NCBI GenBank assembly: GCA_019911985.1
Contig: JAIOJO010000067.1
Coordinates: 1-24,161 of the forward strand
Length of the DNA stretch: 24,161 bases
DNA from: Sulfuricellaceae bacterium
Lineage (GTDB): Bacteria > Pseudomonadota > Gammaproteobacteria > Burkholderiales > UBA9220
Direction: 5' to 3'
The notes under the pieces are model-generated. The model made no database searches, was not told the origin of the DNA, and saw only the letters and a program-made list of their open reading frames with translations. The translations under genes were made by a program, and so were the position numbers. This document shows positions 2,866 to 15,298 of the stretch, in pieces; the first letter of the stretch is position 1, and each line of letters starts with the position of its first letter.

Positions 2866-3612
2866 ATGTTGCTATACGACCTGGAAAATTATACCGGACA
2901 ACTGCTGGCAACGGCGGATTTCCACGATTACTGTCCCAACGGCTTGCAGGTGGAAGGGCGTAGCGAGGTGCGCTCGCTGGTGAGCGGCGTGTCGGCCGGC
3001 TTGGATTTGCTGCAGGCGGCTTTGGCTCTGGGCGCTGACGCGGTGTTGGTGCACCACGGCTATTTCTGGAAAAACGAGGATCCCTGTGTGGTCGGCGTCA
3101 AGCGGCGGCGCCTGGAGCTGTTGCTGCGTCACGATATTAGCCTGCTGGCCTACCATCTCCCTCTGGATGCCCATCCCGGATTGGGTAACAACGCGCAACT
3201 GGCGGCGATGCTGGGCTTGGTGGATGAGGGCGGCTTCGAGGAGCAGAATATCGGGCGTCACGGTGTGCTGGAGCGCCCGCAGACTTTGGCCGAATGGACC
3301 GCTTTGGTGGCCGGCCAATTGCAGCGCGCTCCCCTGGTGATCGGTGACGAGAGCCGGCTCATTCGCCGCGTTGCCTGGTGTAGCGGCGGAGCGCAAGATT
3401 ATTTCACCGAAGCGGTAAAGCTGGGCGTGGATGCTTTCCTCACCGGTGAAATATCCGAGCACAACGTACATCTTGCGCGAGAGTCCGGCGTGGCTTTCAT
3501 CAGCGCCGGGCACTACGCGACCGAGCGTTATGGCGTGCAGGCATTGGGCGATCATTTGGCACGTCATTTCGGCCTGCAGCACCAGTTTGTCGATGTGCCC
3601 AATCCCGTTTAA
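2866..3612 (+). CDS. ybgI: Nif3-like dinuclear metal centre protein (YbgI family)
   Basis: DYCPNGLQVEG, VHHG, YHLPLDAH, TGE and GHYATE motifs. Start taken at ATG 2866. Confidence 0.93.
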   Translation: MLLYDLENYTGQLLATADFHDYCPNGLQVEGRSEVRSLVSGVSAGLDLLQAALALGADAVLVHHGYFWKNEDPCVVGVKRRRLELLLRHDISLLAYHLPLDAHPGLGNNAQLAAMLGLVDEGGFEEQNIGRHGVLERPQTLAEWTALVAGQLQRAPLVIGDESRLIRRVAWCSGGAQDYFTEAVKLGVDAFLTGEISEHNVHLARESGVAFISAGHYATERYGVQALGDHLARHFGLQHQFVDVPNPV

Positions 3613-7221: not shown

Positions 7222-7637
7222 GCGACGTGACGACCAAGCCCTATTTGATACGCGCGATCTACGAATGGTGCAGCGACAACGGCTATACCCCCTATTTGGC
7301 CGTACAGGTTAGCCCGCGCACGCAAGTTCCTCTAGAGCACGTCAAAGACGGCCAAATCGTCCTGAGCTTAAGTTCTACCGCTGTCCGTAATTTGCTGATG
7401 GGTAACGAGTTCGTTGAATTTTCGGCGCGTTTTTCCGGAACGGCACGGCAGATTCTCGTCCCTATTGCTTCCGTTATCGGTATCTACGCGCGTGAAAACG
7501 GCCAGGGTTTATTCTTTGCTGCCGAAGAAGAAACCGAGCAGGCCGACGCGGAAGCGAGGAGCGAAACGCCGACGGCGGATAAGCCCGGCGAGCCAAGCCC
7601 TCCCCGCGGCAGACCTTCCCTGAAGATCGTAAAATAG
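7218..7637 (+). CDS. sspB: ClpXP adaptor SspB
   Basis: KPYLIRAIYEWC, ARFSG, YARENGQG, C-terminal PSLKIVK ClpX-binding tail; ATGA overlap with sspA. Confidence 0.95.
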   Translation: MSDVTTKPYLIRAIYEWCSDNGYTPYLAVQVSPRTQVPLEHVKDGQIVLSLSSTAVRNLLMGNEFVEFSARFSGTARQILVPIASVIGIYARENGQGLFFAAEEETEQADAEARSETPTADKPGEPSPPRGRPSLKIVK

Positions 7638-7698: not shown

Positions 7699-7774
7699 GC
7701 CGGCATAGCTCAGTTGGTAGAGCAGCTGATTTGTAATCAGAAGGTCGAGGGTTCGATTCCTTTTGCCGGCACCA
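7699..7774 (+). tRNA. tRNA-Thr(TGT)
   Basis: 76-nt cloverleaf: acceptor GCCGGCA/TGCCGGC, D arm, anticodon loop TT-TGT-AA, TTCGATT T-loop, encoded CCA. Confidence 0.97.
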
Positions 7775-7775
7775 A
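7756..7775 (+). repeat. attL core (tRNA 3' end)
   Basis: Direct repeat partner of 15280-15298. Confidence 0.88.
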
Positions 7776-7800
7776 ATAACATTCCAAGCAGTACCGAAAT

Positions 7801-7842
7801 AGGCCGCAAACCACGATAAACAGAGGGTTTGCGGCCTTTTTT
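7801..7842 (+). terminator. Element-supplied terminator downstream of the tRNA
   Basis: 12-bp stem AGGCCGCAAACC/GGTTTGCGGCCT followed by a T run. Confidence 0.75.
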
Positions 7843-7873
7843 ACGTCCTAACCAGTCCGAACCGGGCCTATTG

Positions 7874-7946
7874 ATACCCCCGAAACATGGGGGTATATTC
7901 TGGGGTACATCACATGCCAATGTGATTTACAGAAGGATATACCCCC
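7874..7946. repeat. Left cluster of GGGGGTAT motifs (probable integrase arm sites)
   Basis: ATACCCCC 7874-7881, GGGGGTAT 7889-7896, TGGGGTAC 7901-7908, ATACCCCC 7939-7946; matched by a pair at the right end. Confidence 0.65.
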
Positions 7947-7949
7947 ACC

Positions 7950-9188
7950 ATGGCACTTAAAGACCTGGAAATACGCAACGCCAAGCCACTCGATAAGCCC
8001 TATAAGCTCGCAGACAGTGGGGGTATGTACCTTGAAATCAGGCCCAACGGCTCGAAGTATTGGCGCCTGAAATACCGCTTCGGAGGAAAAGAGAAGCTGC
8101 TGGCGCTGGGGGTATATTCAGCACCAGGGCGCCCAGCTTCCGAAGCCGTCACATTGACCGAGGCGCGCAAGCGGATGGCCGAGGCCAAGAAACAGATTCG
8201 GGACGGCATAGACCCCTCCCACCAGCGCAAGGTGGAGAAGATCACCAAGACACAGAACACAGCAAACACCTTTGAAGGCGTGGCCGATGAATGGCTGGAA
8301 AAGTTCGGCGTCAAGAAAGCAGCGTCAACCATGGAGAAAACCCGCTTTATCCTCCGGCGTGATGTGTTCCCGTGGCTGGGGGCGCTACCCATTGCGGAAA
8401 TCAAGCCTTCCGACCTACTGGCAGTCCTGCAAAGGATTGAAAGCCGTGGCGCCCTGGAGACTGCCCACCGTGCGAAGCAATACGCTGGGCAGATATTCCG
8501 CTACGCCGTGGGCACCAAGCGAGCCGAGCGGGATATAACGCAAGACCTCAAGGGCTCACTGCCCGCCCCCAACGTGAAGCACCGAGCAGCCATTACCGAC
8601 CCCGTAAAGTTCGGTGAACTGATCCGCGCCATTGATGGCTTCAATGGAACATTCACGGTCAAGTGTGCCTTGAAGTTGGCACCTCTGATCTTTGTGCGCC
8701 CCGGCGAGCTGCGACAGACGGAATGGTCCTGGGTGGATATGGACGCCGCGACGATCTGCTACCCAGCTTCCGTGATGAAAATGCGAGAGGATCACATAGT
8801 CCCGCTATCCAACCAGGCGCTTGAAATCCTGCGAGAGATTCAGCCGCTTACCGGGCGCGGCAAGTATGTATTCCCCAGCATCCGAACCGGAGAACAACCC
8901 ATGAGCGAGGCGTCGATTAACGCGGCACTTCGGCGCCTTGGGTACGACAAGACGGAAATGACCGGCCACGGATTCAGGGCAGCCGCCAGGACGATCATGG
9001 ATGAGGTGCTGGGCTTCCGTGTTGACCTGATAGAGCATCAGCTCGCCCATGCCGTCAAAGACCCCAACGGACGGGCCTACAACCGCACGGCGCACCTTCC
9101 CCAACGGAGGGAAATGATGCAAGGCTGGGCAGATTATATTGACGGGCTGGCGAGCGGCGCGAAGGTGTTGCCGTTCAAGGCTGCGTAG
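7950..9188 (+). CDS. int: P4-family tyrosine integrase with N-terminal arm-binding domain
   Basis: KPYKLADSGGMYLEI..NGSKYWRLKYRFGGKEKLLALG N-domain; catalytic R (VRPGE), HGFR, QLAH and AYNR all intact. Confidence 0.97.
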   Translation: MALKDLEIRNAKPLDKPYKLADSGGMYLEIRPNGSKYWRLKYRFGGKEKLLALGVYSAPGRPASEAVTLTEARKRMAEAKKQIRDGIDPSHQRKVEKITKTQNTANTFEGVADEWLEKFGVKKAASTMEKTRFILRRDVFPWLGALPIAEIKPSDLLAVLQRIESRGALETAHRAKQYAGQIFRYAVGTKRAERDITQDLKGSLPAPNVKHRAAITDPVKFGELIRAIDGFNGTFTVKCALKLAPLIFVRPGELRQTEWSWVDMDAATICYPASVMKMREDHIVPLSNQALEILREIQPLTGRGKYVFPSIRTGEQPMSEASINAALRRLGYDKTEMTGHGFRAAARTIMDEVLGFRVDLIEHQLAHAVKDPNGRAYNRTAHLPQRREMMQGWADYIDGLASGAKVLPFKAA

Positions 9189-9287
9189 GAGCATCACCGC
9201 CGCCTGACGGTTTCAGGTAAAAGCGGCGGCAAGGGTGCGTGAACACCCGAACCGCCTGACCATAACGCAACTGCAAGGAGTTACATC

Positions 9288-9371
9288 ATGGCTACCGCCG
9301 ATTCTACATCACGCAACATCGCCGCATCGCAAAGCACGGACCGCGAAGTCAAGAAAGGAGGTGCGGAATGA
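9288..9371 (+). CDS. Putative 27-aa leader peptide (MATADSTSRNIAASQSTDREVKKGGAE)
   Basis: AAGGAG RBS before ATG 9288; TGA overlaps the ATG of the next ORF (ATGA). Too short for the supplied ORF track. Confidence 0.5.
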   Translation: MATADSTSRNIAASQSTDREVKKGGAE

Positions 9372-9715
9372 GCGGCGAAAATCCTTATTTTTCACACGGC
9401 ATAGAATTTTCTGGCCTTTGTCACAACCTGCAAAACCAGCCGCCAGAATGGGCTGGTGGCTTATTTACAAAAGAATATGACCCTCTTCGGCTTATTGCGA
9501 TTGAACGGCAAGCTGACAATATCGAACAATCGGCGCTTTCGGGTGCTAAGGCTGTTGGAGAACTTCTGGCTGTTGCCATTCGAACCGGCGAGCTGGACAA
9601 GAACACGATTGAAAGTGCCGGCTGGCTGATTAAGTTTCTTGCTGATCTTGCACAAGAAACCGGAGTTATTTCTTCAAGCGCCAGACATACTGTTGAACAT
9701 GGCGCATTAATCTGA
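9368..9715 (+). CDS. Hypothetical element protein (115 aa)
   Basis: AAGGAGG RBS upstream; co-oriented with the element; helical C-terminal half; no family recognised. Confidence 0.7.
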   Translation: MSGENPYFSHGIEFSGLCHNLQNQPPEWAGGLFTKEYDPLRLIAIERQADNIEQSALSGAKAVGELLAVAIRTGELDKNTIESAGWLIKFLADLAQETGVISSSARHTVEHGALI

Positions 9716-9722
9716 CCGTTTT

Positions 9723-9787
9723 GCCGCGCCTAGCCCGAGGCTGATCCCCGAGGGCGAAAACCGGGCACCTTCACCCGGCGGCGCGGC
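9723..9787 (+). ncRNA. Candidate cloverleaf regulatory RNA (c4/CI-like)
   Basis: 8-bp closing stem GCCGCGCC/GGCGCGGC enclosing two hairpins, in an intergenic gap. Function inferred only. Confidence 0.4.
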
Positions 9788-9822
9788 TCCTGATTGAAGG
9801 CTGCACTTTGAAGGGGTGTGAA

Positions 9823-10296
9823 ATGCCGAGACTAGATATTTCACCTGAGATCGAATCAGAACAACTTGATTATTTTCGAACAACGTTCGAGATGATGACG
9901 GGAAATAGCCGCGTAAGTGCATTATTTGGCGCAATCAGGTTTTGTGGAAATCAGGAAATACCCATGCCGCAATGGGTTGTAAATGCTTTTTACTCTGCAA
10001 CCAACGAGTGGCTTGGTATGCGTGCCTGTAGTCTTGATGAATCCTTTGGAGCGAAACCACGCACCATAAAAAGAATGGCTCAAATGAAGCTGAGAAGCTT
10101 GGCTTTTCATAAAGTGCAGATTGCTGCTAGAGCAGCAAAACAACATGGCAATTCAATTAACATTTCCTTTTTCGATGAACTGAGCGAAAAGATTGGGCTG
10201 GGCAAAACGGCACTTCAAGAACTGTATTACGGCAAAAGAAACAGAAAACCCCTAACCCGCGAAAAATCAAAAAAACGCGGGATTACTAAAAAATAA
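9823..10296 (+). CDS. Hypothetical AT-rich protein (157 aa) with possible C-terminal HTH
   Basis: AAGGGG RBS before ATG 9823; FFDELSEKIGLGKTALQELYY resembles an HTH; basic tail. Confidence 0.7.
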   Translation: MPRLDISPEIESEQLDYFRTTFEMMTGNSRVSALFGAIRFCGNQEIPMPQWVVNAFYSATNEWLGMRACSLDESFGAKPRTIKRMAQMKLRSLAFHKVQIAARAAKQHGNSINISFFDELSEKIGLGKTALQELYYGKRNRKPLTREKSKKRGITKK

Positions 10297-10363
10297 CAAA
10301 CATTCATGCTTGCCGCCATGAGCTTATCCAGTCCCGGATGGGCCGTACCGAAAGGACGAAATC

Positions 10364-10606
10364 ATGGCAGCCCAACTTGCAGAACTCAACACCCAGCGCC
10401 TCACCATCCTTCGCCGTCGAGAAGTTGAACGGCGCACCGGACTTTCCAGAACGTCCCTGTATGAACGCATTGCAGCCGGAACCTTTCCGCGCCCTGTAAA
10501 TCTTGGCGGAGGGCAGAGTGTTGGCTGGTATGAACACGAAGTAGAAACGTGGATTTCCAGCCTCCCCCGTGCCCGTGCGGGCGAACGCGCCGAATCCGCC
10601 AAGTAA
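10364..10606 (+). CDS. alpA: AlpA-family regulator / recombination directionality factor
   Basis: ILRRREVERRTGLSRTSLYERIAAGTFPRPVNLG..SVGWYEHEVETWI is the AlpA pattern. Confidence 0.95.
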   Translation: MAAQLAELNTQRLTILRRREVERRTGLSRTSLYERIAAGTFPRPVNLGGGQSVGWYEHEVETWISSLPRARAGERAESAK

Positions 10607-10616
10607 GGCGGGCGCA

Positions 10617-10820
10617 ATGAAAAATCACTCCAAAACCAACTACAGAAACGTTCCTGGCGGCAGCGGACTAAACCCTAACACCCGAGGGCCAATGATTCCC
10701 GTTGCGCTTGAGGACTTGCTAACCAGCGGCTCCCGTACCCAACGCCGTTGGGCATCAAAAGAGCTGCGCAAGTTGTCCCGCGAGAAGGTGAAAGCGAGTA
10801 GCGAAGGGAGCGCGGCATGA
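10617..10820 (+). CDS. Small basic hypothetical protein (67 aa)
   Basis: Fills the alpA-primase gap; stop overlaps the primase ATG (ATGA). Confidence 0.55.
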   Translation: MKNHSKTNYRNVPGGSGLNPNTRGPMIPVALEDLLTSGSRTQRRWASKELRKLSREKVKASSEGSAA

Positions 10821-11647
10821 TTAGCTTCGAGCGTAAGTTTCTTGATGCTCTCCGATCTGCCGGACTGGAGCCAGTGAAGGCCGACATTGACGCTGATGGC
10901 GTATTGCACCGTTACCGAGTAACGGGCGACAAGGCAGGCAGCATGAACGGCTGGTACGTGCTCCACGCTTCCCCTGTTCCTGCTGGCGCTTTCGGCTCCT
11001 GGAAAACAGGCGAAACTCACTCCTGGCGTGATGATGTAACCAGGACTGCCACCCCGGCAGAGCGTGCCGAGTTGCAGCGACAAATGCAGGCCATGAAAGC
11101 GGCGCGTGCCGAGGAGGAAAGGCGCGTGCGGGATGCTGCCAGAGCCAAGGCCGCCAAGCTGTGGCTGATGGCCAAGCCTGCACCGGGCGATCATCCCTAC
11201 CTGGCGCGAAAGCGGGTCAAGGCATGGGGTCTGCGGCAGTTGAACAACATGCTGTTGATCCCGGCTCGCGATGCCGCCGGGCAGCTCCATACCCTGCAAT
11301 TCATCGGCGCTGATGGCAACAAGCGGTTCCTGACAGGCGGGCGCATTCAGGGCTGCTATTACGCAATTGGACGGGTTCGCGGCGCGGTGCTGGTGGCAGA
11401 GGGCTATGCCACGGCAGCAAGCATATTTGAGGCGTCTGGCCATGCCGTGGCGGTGGCCTTCAACGCCGGGAACCTGGAGCCAGTGGCGCGTGCAATACGT
11501 TCAAAATTCCCAAAATTGCACATTGTCATTTGCGCCGATGATGACACGGCGACACCCGGCAACCCCGGACTGACCAAAGCGACCGAGGCGGCACGCGCTG
11601 TGCATGGCTGGGTGGCAAAGCCTGATTTCAGCGGGGTGGCGGCATGA
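10817..11647 (+). CDS. Toprim-domain DNA primase (TraC/P4-alpha-like, no zinc finger seen)
   Basis: LQFIGADGNKRFL.GG, VAEGYATA, VAFNAGNL and ICADDD Toprim motifs. Confidence 0.9.
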   Translation: MISFERKFLDALRSAGLEPVKADIDADGVLHRYRVTGDKAGSMNGWYVLHASPVPAGAFGSWKTGETHSWRDDVTRTATPAERAELQRQMQAMKAARAEEERRVRDAARAKAAKLWLMAKPAPGDHPYLARKRVKAWGLRQLNNMLLIPARDAAGQLHTLQFIGADGNKRFLTGGRIQGCYYAIGRVRGAVLVAEGYATAASIFEASGHAVAVAFNAGNLEPVARAIRSKFPKLHIVICADDDTATPGNPGLTKATEAARAVHGWVAKPDFSGVAA

Positions 11648-13212
11648 GCGCCGTCATGACTGATTTTAATGACCTGGCGCTTGCTGCTGGCCCTGATGTG
11701 CTGCTTCAGCAGTTGGGCAAGGCGAAGCCAGCAACGCCACTCAATAACCCGGCTGAATGGCCTGATCCGCTGCTCCCCGGCAAGATCAACGTTCCCGACA
11801 TTCCAACGTCCATTCTCCCTAGCTGGGCTGGCGCGATGGCGCAGGCGGTGGCGGATAGTACCCAAACCAGCCCCACGCTGGCGGTGATGCTGACCCTTTC
11901 CGTTCTTGCCACTGTGCTGCAACGCCGCTTCGAGGTGGCCCCATATGGCGCTGATGATGACTACAGCGAGCCGTTGGCGGTATGGACCTTAACCGGGCTG
12001 GGCAGCGGGAACCGCAAGACGGCGGTAATCAATTCCCTCGCCGCCCCGCTGGTGTATTGGGAGAAGTTGGAGCGCGACCGTATGCGGTCCGAGATTGCAC
12101 GGGTAACAGCGGCGCGGGCGGTGGGAAAGAAGCGTATCGAGAAACTGCTCAAGGACGCCAGCAACGCGGACAACGACGATTCCAGAGCACGGATTCAGGC
12201 GCAGATTCAGCAGGAGGAGGAAGCCATGCCAGCCGAGGTTAGAGCGCCACGGCTTTACACCGGGGACTGCACGGCGGAGCGTTTGCAAGGGCTGCTGGTA
12301 GAACAGGGCGAACGCATGGCGGTTTTGTCTGATGAGTCTGGCATATTCCTGATTATGGCCGGCATCTACTCGGGCGGCATTGCCAACCTGGATGTATTCC
12401 TACAGGGACATGCCGGGACGCCCATGCGCGTGGATCGTGCCGAGCGATCCGCCCATATCGACAAGCCCGCCTTGTCCTTCGGCCTGGCGCTGCAACCCGG
12501 CGTGATGGCTGACGTGGCCAGCTCACGGCGCTTTCGGGATAGCGGCCTGCTGGCGCGATTCCTGTTCGCCATGCCTGAATCAAACGTGGGCAAGCGTGAC
12601 GTGCGGAGGCGCGTGACGATCCCCGAGCATGTCCGGGCGGCTTACGCGCGCGGTCTGTTCGCCCTGCTGGAACAGCGCCCTGCAGTACCAGGAAACCCAA
12701 GGATCATTCCATTTACTGAACAGGCGCTTGATTGCTGGATAGATTTCGCTGAGGAGATCGAGACCCAGCAGGGCGAGGGCGGAAAGCTGGAAGGGATTGC
12801 CGATTGGTCATCAAAGTTACCCGGTGCGGCGGCGCGGGTTTCGGCGCTGCTGGAGTTGGCAGAAGTGGGCCTGCACGCCGAAAGCGTAAGTCACCAGTCA
12901 GTGGCGCGGGCGGTGGAGTTGGGCGGCCTGCTGATCCCACACGCTCAGGCGGCATTCGGCCTGCTGGGTGCGGACGCTACTGAGGCAGACGCCAGCGCCA
13001 TTGTGAAGTGGCTACGCGAGAACAGCAGCGGTTACTTCAAGCGCAGTACATGCCAGAAGGCGATGGAGGGGCGATTCCGTACCGTGGACAAGCTCAAGAA
13101 GGCGCTGGATAGACTGGTCCAGTGTGATGTGCTCAGAGAGGAAAAGCTACCAAACAAAGGTGCACCGCCAAGCATTTGCTATCGAGTCAATCCGAAGTGT
13201 CTGTCTACATGA
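11644..13212 (+). CDS. DUF3987/YfjI-family replication (helicase-like) protein
   Basis: Degenerate P-loop GLGSGNRKT, TAERL, VLSDE, SGLLARFLF, winged-helix-like C-terminus; coupled to the primase by ATGA. Confidence 0.85.
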   Translation: MSAVMTDFNDLALAAGPDVLLQQLGKAKPATPLNNPAEWPDPLLPGKINVPDIPTSILPSWAGAMAQAVADSTQTSPTLAVMLTLSVLATVLQRRFEVAPYGADDDYSEPLAVWTLTGLGSGNRKTAVINSLAAPLVYWEKLERDRMRSEIARVTAARAVGKKRIEKLLKDASNADNDDSRARIQAQIQQEEEAMPAEVRAPRLYTGDCTAERLQGLLVEQGERMAVLSDESGIFLIMAGIYSGGIANLDVFLQGHAGTPMRVDRAERSAHIDKPALSFGLALQPGVMADVASSRRFRDSGLLARFLFAMPESNVGKRDVRRRVTIPEHVRAAYARGLFALLEQRPAVPGNPRIIPFTEQALDCWIDFAEEIETQQGEGGKLEGIADWSSKLPGAAARVSALLELAEVGLHAESVSHQSVARAVELGGLLIPHAQAAFGLLGADATEADASAIVKWLRENSSGYFKRSTCQKAMEGRFRTVDKLKKALDRLVQCDVLREEKLPNKGAPPSICYRVNPKCLST

Positions 13213-13229
13213 TCGAGTTATTCGCCATA

Positions 13230-13377
13230 AAGCTTATTTAAGACTATTTATATTTAATATCAATTACATAGTGAGATAGAGCATGACACCCAATCGAAAA
13301 AGTCGAATAAGTCGAAGAAGCCAAATAAATCAACCAGGGCCATTTTTCGGTAATTCGACTTTTTCGACTTATTCGAT
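13230..13377. repeat. AT-rich tract plus inverted 9-bp iteron-like arrays (putative ori)
   Basis: TCGAAAAAG/TCGAATAAG/TCGAAGAAG tandem at 13294-13320; reverse-complement copies at 13359-13376. Confidence 0.65.
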
Positions 13378-13420
13378 AGGGGTTAGTCGCCGGGATAGGG
13401 AGGTGCGAATAGTACCCATA

Positions 13421-13508
13421 GGGGGTGTAAATCCCTGGAGCGCAAAGCCTATAGACCGGCTGTGTAGTCATATTTTTGCGTGCGCGAGTTTAGTGGGGGG
13501 GGTATCCC
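13421..13508 (+). other. cos-like packaging signal candidate
   Basis: GGGGG...ACCG...GTCA-TA-TTTTT-GCGTGCGCGAG...G8 layout, resembling cos regions of HK97-like phages (recalled, not aligned). Confidence 0.4.
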
Positions 13509-13545
13509 GTGGAGAAAGTCATCAATTCCAATGATTGGAGGTTTT

Positions 13546-13812
13546 ATGAGTACCTGTTTGAAGTGCGGTTTACCCATTGAAGGGCAGGCTGAGACCGGAA
13601 GGCCGAAGTCCTATTGCTCTGTTGGATGTAGGCGATCGGCAGAGCATGAAGTGAGGCGCATCAATTCGCTGCTTCAAAAACTTGAGACTGATCTGAGCAA
13701 TGCTTTGCTGGGCCGTGTATGGGCCGACCAGGTTCCCAAGATCGAGGCCGAGATTTCACGACAAGAAACGCGGTTGCGGATTCTGCTTGATACCGATGAA
13801 TTTGAAAAATAA
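13546..13812 (+). CDS. Hypothetical zinc-finger/coiled-coil protein (88 aa)
   Basis: GGAGG RBS; CxxC...CxxxC (CLKC, CSVGC) followed by an amphipathic helix. Confidence 0.75.
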   Translation: MSTCLKCGLPIEGQAETGRPKSYCSVGCRRSAEHEVRRINSLLQKLETDLSNALLGRVWADQVPKIEAEISRQETRLRILLDTDEFEK

Positions 13813-13887
13813 TTTTCACCACCAAGGCGACATGGGCCGCCCTGGATGGATTATTTAGCCCACAACAACCAAAAAGGAATGCAAAAA

Positions 13888-14169
13888 ATGTTAGGACAAT
13901 CACTACTTATCGACGGCGCATTGGCCGGGGCAATTTCAGATGCAAGCCAGGTTAGCGTTTTAGGCCTGGGCATCAAATCCGCGCTGACCGGCTCTTTAAC
14001 TATCACTGGAATGGCAAACACGGATGGCTCACCGGCAACCTGGACGATTGCGCCGGGAGGTTCTGGCGCTTATTCGCCGCCCGCTGCTGGTCTCGCAAGT
14101 CACCTGAGTTATGCCCTGAGCAGTGCCGCAGACTTGGGAAAAGTGTTTATCGCATTCCGCCCAATTTAA
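13888..14169 (+). CDS. Hypothetical small Gly/Ser/Ala/Thr-rich, beta-strand-like protein (93 aa)
   Basis: AAGGA RBS suits ATG 13888 (alternative 13879); alternating hydrophobic pattern. Confidence 0.65.
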   Translation: MLGQSLLIDGALAGAISDASQVSVLGLGIKSALTGSLTITGMANTDGSPATWTIAPGGSGAYSPPAAGLASHLSYALSSAADLGKVFIAFRPI

Positions 14170-14183
14170 CAAAGGAAAATATT

Positions 14184-14921
14184 ATGCAATTAGCAAACCT
14201 GATTAAAAATCTGAAACTCGGCCCCGATGCCCGCGAAGAACTTGATCGCGTACTGGCGCTACCAGAGGTGGAAGCGATCCTCTCTCGTGAGGAGCATAAA
14301 ACCATCGCTCACCGCCGCGAACTGATGAAGAAGTTGGCAGGCGTGCCAGGGCGTCACTCGAAGTCGATTGAAATCGCCAACCGGAAACTGGCAGAAGCCC
14401 ACCACCTGGCCGAAAAACTGGAAGCCGAACTCATCGAGGCGAAGGCCGCGCACCGCATGGCCGGAATGCTCGCCGATGGCGCGAAACGCGAACAGGAAAA
14501 CGAGCAGGCCGAACTGGTCGCGGAACTTCACGCCGGGAGAGATCGCCGTCTGGATGATCTGTATTTGGCCTTGGACAAGCTCGCCGACCAGGCGCGCGGG
14601 CTGGTGCGAATCTGGCCTCAAACTTACAAAAGTCCACTTGGCTCCCGTGAGGTGCGTTACGTCGGTAACTCTGTCGAGGTGGAAGATGCCCGCAGTTCCA
14701 TACTCGCGGCTCAGCGCAAACTGGAGGCTTTCGCCCTTGGATCAATGACCCGGCAGGAAATCACTGACAGTATGGCGGAAATCTGCGCCAATCTGGTCAA
14801 GCCGCTGGATGCGCTGGACTTGGTGGCACCTTCCATTGATGAAAGTGGCGCAGTAACACAACCCAAAGTCAAAACGGGGGTTGATCTTACGTCCAAACGC
14901 ATCGAGGAGGCCGCCGCATGA
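14184..14921 (+). CDS. Hypothetical coiled-coil protein (245 aa)
   Basis: AAGGA RBS; long E/A/K/L-rich heptad-like N-terminal half; stop overlaps the next ATG. Confidence 0.8.
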   Translation: MQLANLIKNLKLGPDAREELDRVLALPEVEAILSREEHKTIAHRRELMKKLAGVPGRHSKSIEIANRKLAEAHHLAEKLEAELIEAKAAHRMAGMLADGAKREQENEQAELVAELHAGRDRRLDDLYLALDKLADQARGLVRIWPQTYKSPLGSREVRYVGNSVEVEDARSSILAAQRKLEAFALGSMTRQEITDSMAEICANLVKPLDALDLVAPSIDESGAVTQPKVKTGVDLTSKRIEEAAA

Positions 14922-15121
14922 GTCGAGATTTCGAAATTTCGCACAAGAGCGCCTGCGATGCCCTTGGGCTTCAAGCAAATGCACTTGCTTGTATCCCTTT
15001 GGCGTACAGGATAAACCCAGACGGCAGCCGGGTTTCCTGGGCAGCCGACATTGCGCGGCATTTGCGATTGAAGTACCCAGCCCGCGCCTTGGCGAAGATG
15101 AGTTTGAGCCTAACCAAGTAA
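14918..15121 (+). CDS. Hypothetical protein (67 aa)
   Basis: GAGGAGG upstream, ATGA coupling with the previous gene, followed by a hairpin and T run. Confidence 0.55.
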   Translation: MSRDFEISHKSACDALGLQANALACIPLAYRINPDGSRVSWAADIARHLRLKYPARALAKMSLSLTK

Positions 15122-15143
15122 ATCCAAGCACCCACCAACTGAC

Positions 15144-15165
15144 CCGGCCTTTGCGCCGGCTTTTT
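15144..15165 (+). terminator. Weak terminator after the last element gene
   Basis: CCGGC/GCCGG stem followed by CTTTTT. Confidence 0.45.
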
Positions 15166-15202
15166 CATTTTCCAACTAAACAAGGGGTAGCAAAATGAAA
15201 GT

Positions 15203-15222
15203 GGGGGTATATTTGGGGGTAT
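15203..15222 (+). repeat. Right pair of GGGGGTAT motifs (probable integrase arm sites)
   Basis: GGGGGTAT at 15203-15210 and 15215-15222; 12-bp period, same as the left pair. Confidence 0.65.
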
Positions 15223-15279
15223 AAATTGGGCAAAATATTTTTGCATCTAAGCCTATGGCTGTTCTCAGGCAATTATTTC

Positions 15280-15298
15280 ATTCCTTTTGCCGCACCAA
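15280..15298 (+). repeat. attR core (displaced, damaged tRNA 3' fragment)
   Basis: 19 of 20 nt match to 7756-7775 with one G missing. Confidence 0.85.

Follow-up and report, generated by a model that had tools for sequence, protein, structure and literature searches.

Positions 13421-13512 of the window, the 24,161-nt contig analyzed here (JAIOJO010000067.1, from the Sulfuricellaceae bacterium assembly GCA_019911985.1), form what we believe, with a probability of roughly 80%, to be a genuine cos site of the HK97-like, HNH-dependent type with a 10-nt 3' overhang, located on a 7.5-kb integrative satellite that has no terminase, HNH or capsid genes and is packaged by a helper phage. The homology of the site and the anatomy of the island can be read directly from the alignments and annotation. 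Very probably, the island lives as a small parasite of a helper phage, which would pack the island DNA into phage particles. The original prediction, made from the DNA letters alone, was that this segment is a cos-like packaging motif used by a helper cos phage, and that interpretation is largely supported.

The site lies inside a 333-nt gap between a helicase gene (11644-13212) and an 88-codon ORF (13546-13812). The six motifs originally named are all present at the positions given when read directly from the sequence: GGGGG at 13421-13425, ACCG at 13455-13458, GTCA at 13467-13470, TTTTT at 13473-13477, GCGTGCGCGAG at 13478-13488 and G8 at 13495-13502. Each of the six corresponds to one conserved block in the phage alignment. 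A profile, R1, built from 27 phage terS-upstream regions only (HNH gene to P27-family terS, with the window excluded) matches the window at 13421-13512 with 49.2 bits (E 3.7e-14 in 151 kb), and this is its sole match in the 2.97-Mb assembly (E 7.7e-13). The boundaries of the match are almost equal to those first flagged, 13421-13508. In a separate nhmmer run the window segment scored 47.5 bits (E 1.6e-14). All of the phage-invariant columns are kept in the window except one, a C to T change at first-row position 61 of alignment A2, and Rfam has no match inside the flagged segment. The parts of the site are as follows.

13421-13512, + strand: cos site, homologous to the HNH-terS junction of HK97-like phages (R1, alignment A1, nhmmer)
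13421-13439, + strand: left cos block, a G-run and then TAAATCCCTGG (alignments)
13457-13466, + strand: predicted 10-nt 3' cohesive end, CGGCTGTGTA (homology to the VarioGold cosR, CGATCGGTTC)
13467-13506, + strand: right cos block, composed of GTCAT, T5, GCGTGCGCGAG, TTT, G8 and TATCCC, kept across 27 phages

In the phages, the left block consists of a G-run and then CAAAAGTCTGG, and it overlaps the end of the HNH gene. The island keeps the left block without an overlapping HNH gene, which argues for selection on the DNA itself. The right block is presumed to be the terminase-binding side.

The phage counterparts were found with an exact-word scan of IMG/VR. The word made of the T-run and GC-block returned a 5,982-bp viral contig, L032, and besides it three chance matches, and the G-run word returned chance matches only. 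Positions 13472-13508 of the window and the extreme end of L032 are identical at 35 of 39 bases. The match in L032 sits about 60 nt upstream of a Terminase_4 terS, which is followed in order by terL, portal, ClpP-type protease and HK97-fold capsid genes. With the TerS of this contig as query we obtained 80 viral loci, nearly all of which share ordered blocks upstream of terS: a G-run, CAAAAGTCTGG, CCGGAAAC-CGACCGnTTC-CCCAAA, T5-7, GCGTGCGCRGG, TTT, a G-run and TACCCC. The homologous phage segment lies between the HNH gene and the Terminase_4 terS (in L070, for example, HNH is at 2549-2899 and Terminase_4 at 3001-3573), and the VarioGold and HK97 records are likewise annotated in the order HNH-cos-terS.

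The Variovorax phage VarioGold (OP296522) has its HNH gene at the right end and terS at 89-643, and the last 10 nt of its record are annotated as cosR. PhageTerm analysis of particle DNA gave 10-nt 3' cohesive ends, CGATCGGTTC, for this phage (PMC9658991). Its junction scores 62.2 bits against the phage profile. The alignment with experimentally mapped cos regions that had been proposed as a check is thus provided by the VarioGold termini, with the window at 47.5-49.2 bits against the profile. The layout had been likened to the region upstream of terS in HK97-like 3'-cos phages, and it is indeed homologous to that HNH-terS segment, which in VarioGold holds a mapped end.

Contig ends in public viromes bear on the same column. 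Among viral contigs ending near terS, ten independent ones begin at the VarioGold left-end column and two more begin within 1 nt of it; this common start column precedes the T-run's end by 11 nt. The linear contigs G006 and G007 (40,842 and 38,542 bp), both essentially complete, finish with ...GGAAAC or ...CAGGAC and start with GTCAAATTTTT or CCTCTTTTTTT. Compared with uninterrupted copies, about 10 nt (CGAnCGnTTC) are absent between the two ends, as expected from end repair of a 3' overhang. HK97 shares the left half of the site, a G-run and then TCAAATCT, and its record ends with ...GAC-CGCCGCCAAA and starts with GTTTG; its profile match is weak (11.4 bits), and we treat it as corroboration only.

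The cohesive end in the window was placed by homology to the VarioGold cosR, and the placement is also backed by the 10 nt missing from G006 and G007 and by the contig starts. On this basis the top strand is predicted to be nicked after 13466 and the bottom strand after 13456, and the left end in the window would be 13467, that is, the GTCA motif of the original prediction.

Two further arrangements were noted in this group of sequences. The viral contigs L083 and L084 have about 0.5 kb inserted between the right cos block and terS, so cargo can be accommodated there in some members of this phage group. Two metagenome contigs have two closely spaced cos-model matches each (L145:1939-2145 and L156:1411-2292), the pair in L145 being in opposite orientation, and these could be rearranged or tandem elements.

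The element that carries the site in the window is an island at 7756-15297, with a unit of 7524 bp, inserted at a tRNA-Thr gene. It has the gene set of a satellite, with int, alpA, primase, helicase, an iteron origin and att sites at the tRNA.

7699-7774, + strand: tRNA-Thr(tgt), the integration target (ARAGORN; Rfam tRNA 70.9 bits)
7950-9188, + strand: P4-type tyrosine integrase (Pfam Arm-DNA-bind_3, Phage_int_M, Phage_integrase; phrog_1)
9723-9800, + strand: int-alpA RNA motif, RF02996 (Rfam 61.8 bits against a gathering score of 35.8)
10364-10606, + strand: AlpA-family excision/transcription regulator (PF05930, 58.3 bits)
10817-11647, + strand: Toprim DNA primase (Pfam Toprim_3/4; phrog_2249, E 2.6e-70)
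11644-13212, + strand: DUF3987 replicative helicase (PF13148, 315 bits; phrog_2373)
13235-13381, no strand: probable replication origin, an AT-rich tract and then inverted AAGTCGAA iterons (inverted repeats)
13888-15121, + strand: three-gene module encoding 93, 245 and 67 aa, a block kept in L021 and L022 only
15280-15297, + strand: attR core, a copy of the tRNA 3' end minus one G (sequence comparison)

All of the island genes are on the + strand, with four small ORFs after the helicase gene. Terminase, capsid and HNH genes are absent from the island, which bears out the original statement that no terminase gene is present. Comparison with attR places the attL core at 7756-7774. Excision could alter the tRNA-Thr, depending on the crossover point, given the G missing from attR. 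Some 560 nt separate the int-alpA RNA motif from alpA downstream of it, and another ORF lies in this interval. The DNA shared with L012, L013, L018 and L019 ends with the iterons, which agrees with their being the cognate origin of the DUF3987 helicase, and a location just past the helicase is the usual place of the origin in satellites and PICIs. The island is flanked by ordinary chromosomal genes (tatC, bc1 complex, LysR, cbbQ/O and aldolase). The source assembly is a MAG of 600 contigs and 2.97 Mb that is 86% complete.

Against an expectation of 0.45, the window has 9 copies of the word GGGGGTAT; seven of these copies are in the att arms, and one is the cos G-run at 13498. The clusters are at 7874-8115 and 15203-15222 of the window, with a further copy at 7285, and they occur as TGGGGGTATA in direct and inverted orientation. 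The att-arm copies are probably arm-type sites of the P4-type integrase, which has the Arm-DNA-bind_3 domain. We set aside an integrase arm-type site as the primary reading of the copy at 13498 because the G-run followed by TAYCCC is conserved in the cos of the phages.

For the three-gene module there was no Pfam or PHROG match. Its 245-aa protein (P0003) has only two homologues among 5.8 billion clusters, its AF2 model is mediocre (pLDDT 73), and a fold search with it gave no informative match. No capsid-resizing gene is recognizable on the island. Among the island proteins there was one weak language-model lead to Psu (0.86).

A related helicase is encoded on ten islands, which lie in genomes of Sulfurimicrobium, Azonexus, Thiobacillus, Propionivibrio and Rhodocyclales. 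Their DNA likeness to the window ends at the iterons; the flagged segment and all that follows it are part of a variable module. A sister island, L021 (Logan ERR12814464), has its own HNH and P27-family terS genes at the slot of the flagged segment (L021:3244-4020), with a different G-rich inverted repeat between them, and it shares the 93/245/67-aa module with the window. The HNH and terS genes in this slot were the first sign that it is a packaging module, and packaging modules seem to be swapped within the satellite lineage. In three other related islands, from Azonexus and others, the cos model matches just past the helicase gene (L019, 35.5 bits; L020, 19.4; L011, 16.3), and an HK97-fold major capsid gene follows the cos-like site (L019:9388-10683, L020:8229-9332, L011:8090-9325). 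These three, whose downstream ORFs were scanned for the capsid fold only, are satellites that bring their own capsid protein. Among 150 sampled genomes of the same order, 8 have one cos match each, two of these matches being satellite-type and at least three phage-type (with terS). In 4 other genomes of the same taxonomic family we found no DNA match.

The gene that follows the cos site begins 33 nt past it, where phages have terS, and the original remark that this gene sits where terS usually lies is accurate. The two features concerned are listed here.

13509-13517, + strand: GTGGAGAAA box, between the cos G-run and the P0001 gene
13546-13812, + strand: P0001, 88 aa, four-Cys zinc knuckle and helical hairpin (translation)

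The AF2 model of P0001 (pLDDT 89.9) shows the four-Cys zinc knuckle and then the helical hairpin. P0001 has four close homologues and belongs to a wider unnamed family of 607 representative clusters at E<=1e-3, whose members are nearly all 85-110 aa long and for which there is neither a Pfam model nor a solved structure. Searches with P0001 gave no match in isolated phage records, no relatives in IMG/VR and no significant Foldseek match. The original prediction had brought in the Rpp protein of Gram-negative PICIs, to which P0001 has no detectable homology: no PDB chain (and the PDB should include RppC) has a sequence match to P0001, and neither by sequence nor by Foldseek could similarity to Rpp or to TerS be detected.

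The family is linked to cos. In all ten distinct loci examined (the window, L127, L128, L129, L130, L169/170, L171, L172, L176 and L177), the family gene is preceded, at a distance of no more than about 100 nt, by a cos-model match. The cassette of cos and 88-aa-family gene recurs across these ten at 40-87% protein identity, and several of the loci are visible islands with int, AlpA/HTH_17, primase and DUF3987 genes. Family members were found at none of the 80 phage terS loci. The GTGGAGAAA box, as GTGGAGAA(A), is present in 9 of the 10 satellites that have cos with an 88-aa-family gene, and in 7 of those 9 its start is no farther than 10 nt from where the cos match ends. L127-L130, L171, L176 and L177 have the box at the position that it has in the window. 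The box may serve as an operator, as a binding site or within a leader.

That the 88-aa gene is so strictly linked to cos suggests a packaging role. Most likely, P0001 acts at cos as a packaging-specificity factor of the satellite. More tentatively, and at somewhat less than even odds, the family may be a hitherto unrecognized class of satellite packaging factors that binds near cos, possibly at the GTGGAGAAA box, and recruits or retargets the helper TerL, TerS and HNH proteins. If this were true, the family would be a functional analogue of Rpp or of the small terminase with a different fold.

From the homology and the anatomy we infer the following course of cleavage and packaging. A helper of the betaproteobacterial HK97-like group (38-41 kb, with P27-family TerS, TerL and HNH) would induce the island to excise and replicate. 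The terminase and HNH protein of this helper would then recognize the island cos and nick it at GAC/CGGCTGTGTA/GTCAT (13456/13466, slashes marking the nicks), and island DNA would be packed from cos to cos into capsids made by the helper. The cos-delimited unit is 7.5 kb and the capsid holds 39 kb, which sets multimer packaging against capsid resizing: the head may be filled by about five units (37.6 kb), or a smaller capsid may be used. Lambda cosmids and P4 packed in P2-size heads are precedents for multimer packaging. Alternatively, the 93/245/67-aa module might resize capsids; it is a candidate only, and we found no support for it in this role.

Several observations weigh against helper packaging, among them the lack of a recognizable capsid-resizing gene and of any detectable likeness of P0001 to TerS or Rpp. 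A co-resident prophage with a similar cos, which it had been proposed to look for, is not in the assembly; there is no second cos-model match in the 86%-complete MAG, none in the genomes of five relatives and none in the genomes holding L176 and L177. In a blastn search of the intergenic region against 50,697 records of isolated phages there were chance matches only. Of the 10 positions in the predicted island overhang, only about 5 agree with the phage consensus. An island-type overhang, GAC/CGGCTGTG.A/GTCAT, is common to the satellites (nick region pattern GACCGGCTGTG.AGTCAT), and this overhang word has three chance matches in IMG/VR, none of them with a cos-model match; a phage with such an overhang was not found there. 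The L032 contig ends at cos, so its own overhang is not visible there. Contigs from the source bioreactor metagenome place the island at the depth of the chromosome (about 6x), one of them runs through cos unbroken, and only the integrated form is seen. The contigs of four runs contain neither excision joints nor excess depth, these being assembler contigs, which are unable to show termini.

A rival explanation is that a phage cos region was captured by recombination and is now unused, with the island moving by other means or not at all. The lack of a helper cos in its own genome, the divergence of the overhang positions from the phage consensus, the attR copy minus one G, and an island depth equal to that of the chromosome all favor this explanation. 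It does not account for the retention of all phage-invariant columns but one, nor for a cassette with the island-type nick region (GACCGGC..G.G) that recurs in at least ten loci with a neighbor protein at 40-50% identity. A neutral remnant would not persist as an alignable cassette at that level of divergence, and we consider the explanation unlikely.

The segment might also have been copied from the late or terminase control region of a phage and serve the 88/93/245/67-aa operon mainly as promoter, operator or leader responsive to the helper, and not as a cleavage site. A co-oriented operon begins directly downstream of it, the satellite-specific GTGGAGAAA box follows it, and the family gene is always adjacent. 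Against this, no sigma-70-like promoter is predicted in 13150-13950, and the conserved part takes in the nick region and the left block. Since the left block is upstream of the phage genome end, it cannot be part of a terS promoter in packaged linear DNA. As a substitute for cos we find a regulatory role quite improbable; the promoter and cos roles are, however, compatible and not mutually exclusive. That the G-runs and the GC-rich, palindrome-like tract resemble cos by chance, single motifs being short and of low complexity, has next to no probability and is already refuted by the profile and nhmmer results, given an E of about 1e-14 with a window-free profile, a single match in 2.97 Mb and the 35/39 identity to a phage contig end.

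A helper-packaged cos satellite has several known relatives in strategy. One group is the cos-type SaPIs SaPIbov4 and SaPIbov5, whose helpers are phi12 and phiSLT (PMC5052747; Quiles-Puchalt 2014, cited there). They too are satellites without terS that have a conserved copy of the helper cos just past the replication module or origin, followed by obscure genes, and their helpers are cos phages that need an HNH nuclease beside TerS and TerL for packaging. The host here differs in being a Gram-negative betaproteobacterium, and the island differs in its size (7.5 kb against about 14 kb), in having no recognizable Ccm-like capsid homologue and in its distinct cos-linked zinc-knuckle gene.

The Gram-negative PICI EcCICFT073 has a replaced cosB that is read by Rpp-TerS (PMC6739421). 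Because both nick flanks of the island resemble phage cos, its strategy is nearer to that of SaPIbov5, which uses the helper's own cos (PMC5052747), than to that of EcCICFT073. The island resembles EcCICFT073-type PICIs in its int-alpA-primase core at a tRNA or similar site; these PICIs use the helper TerS/TerL through cos together with a small packaging-specificity protein, for which we predict a counterpart on the island. They have a lambda-type cos with a 5' overhang, whereas both flanks of the island site are phage-like. Rpp is a 139-aa protein with a lambda-TerS-like wHTH and a C-terminal coiled coil, in contrast to the 88 aa, zinc knuckle and hairpin of P0001, and no likeness between the two could be detected. 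The island does have the core of Gram-negative PICIs, that is, int, alpA, a primase-replicase, an origin after the replicase and no virion genes (Fillol-Salom 2018, PMC6092414; PMC10085698). At 7524 bp, it falls outside their size of about 10-15 kb (PMC6092414; SatelliteFinder, PMC10085698).

With VarioGold and HK97 the site in the window shares the G-run, CAAA..CT, GAC/CG, the 10-nt overhang (predicted in the window, and of the 3' type in both phages), the T-run, the GC-rich block and the G-run, and so has the homology that marks an HK97-like 3'-cos. VarioGold and HK97 are, in contrast, phages with complete genomes of 39-40 kb, which include terminase, HNH and virion genes. The homologous phage loci have the site between HNH and terS, and the island has neither gene. 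Cf-PICIs have their own capsid, portal, protease, terS, terL and HNH genes, and the island is not of this kind. P4 is like the island in its P4-type integrase, its primase-helicase replicon and its copy of the helper cos without a terminase, and differs in that its cos has a 19-nt 5' overhang while the island cos is of the HK97 type; Sid, Psu and Delta were undetectable on the island apart from the weak lead to Psu, Pfam and PHROG giving no match for the downstream genes, and the island is not P4-like by these proteins. The PICMIs of Vibrionaceae are also minimal satellites of about 6-7.5 kb without capsid-remodeling genes, and they are a precedent for multimer packaging, since a concatemer of 8 x 6.1 kb fills the full-size head (PMC10803314). 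They are found next to fis, have virulent helpers and random ends that suggest headful packaging, and have no recognizable cos (PMC10803314), in contrast to the island, which is in tRNA-Thr and has a cos.

The element is a small betaproteobacterial version of the known cos-type satellite strategy, and what is new is the in-silico cut site and the cos-linked protein family. Cos piracy of the SaPIbov5 type, which depends on an HK97-like terminase with HNH, would extend to small environmental betaproteobacterial satellites, and relatives of Sulfurimicrobium, Azonexus and Thiobacillus would be the hosts of a new satellite lineage. The cut site is predicted in silico at base resolution. The ends of public virome contigs mapped the cos termini of a whole phage group, in agreement with the one member that has been analyzed experimentally. 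Finally, a widespread, unnamed family of small proteins, which in satellites is strictly linked to cos and which the examined phages lack, is a candidate for a new packaging-hijack mechanism.
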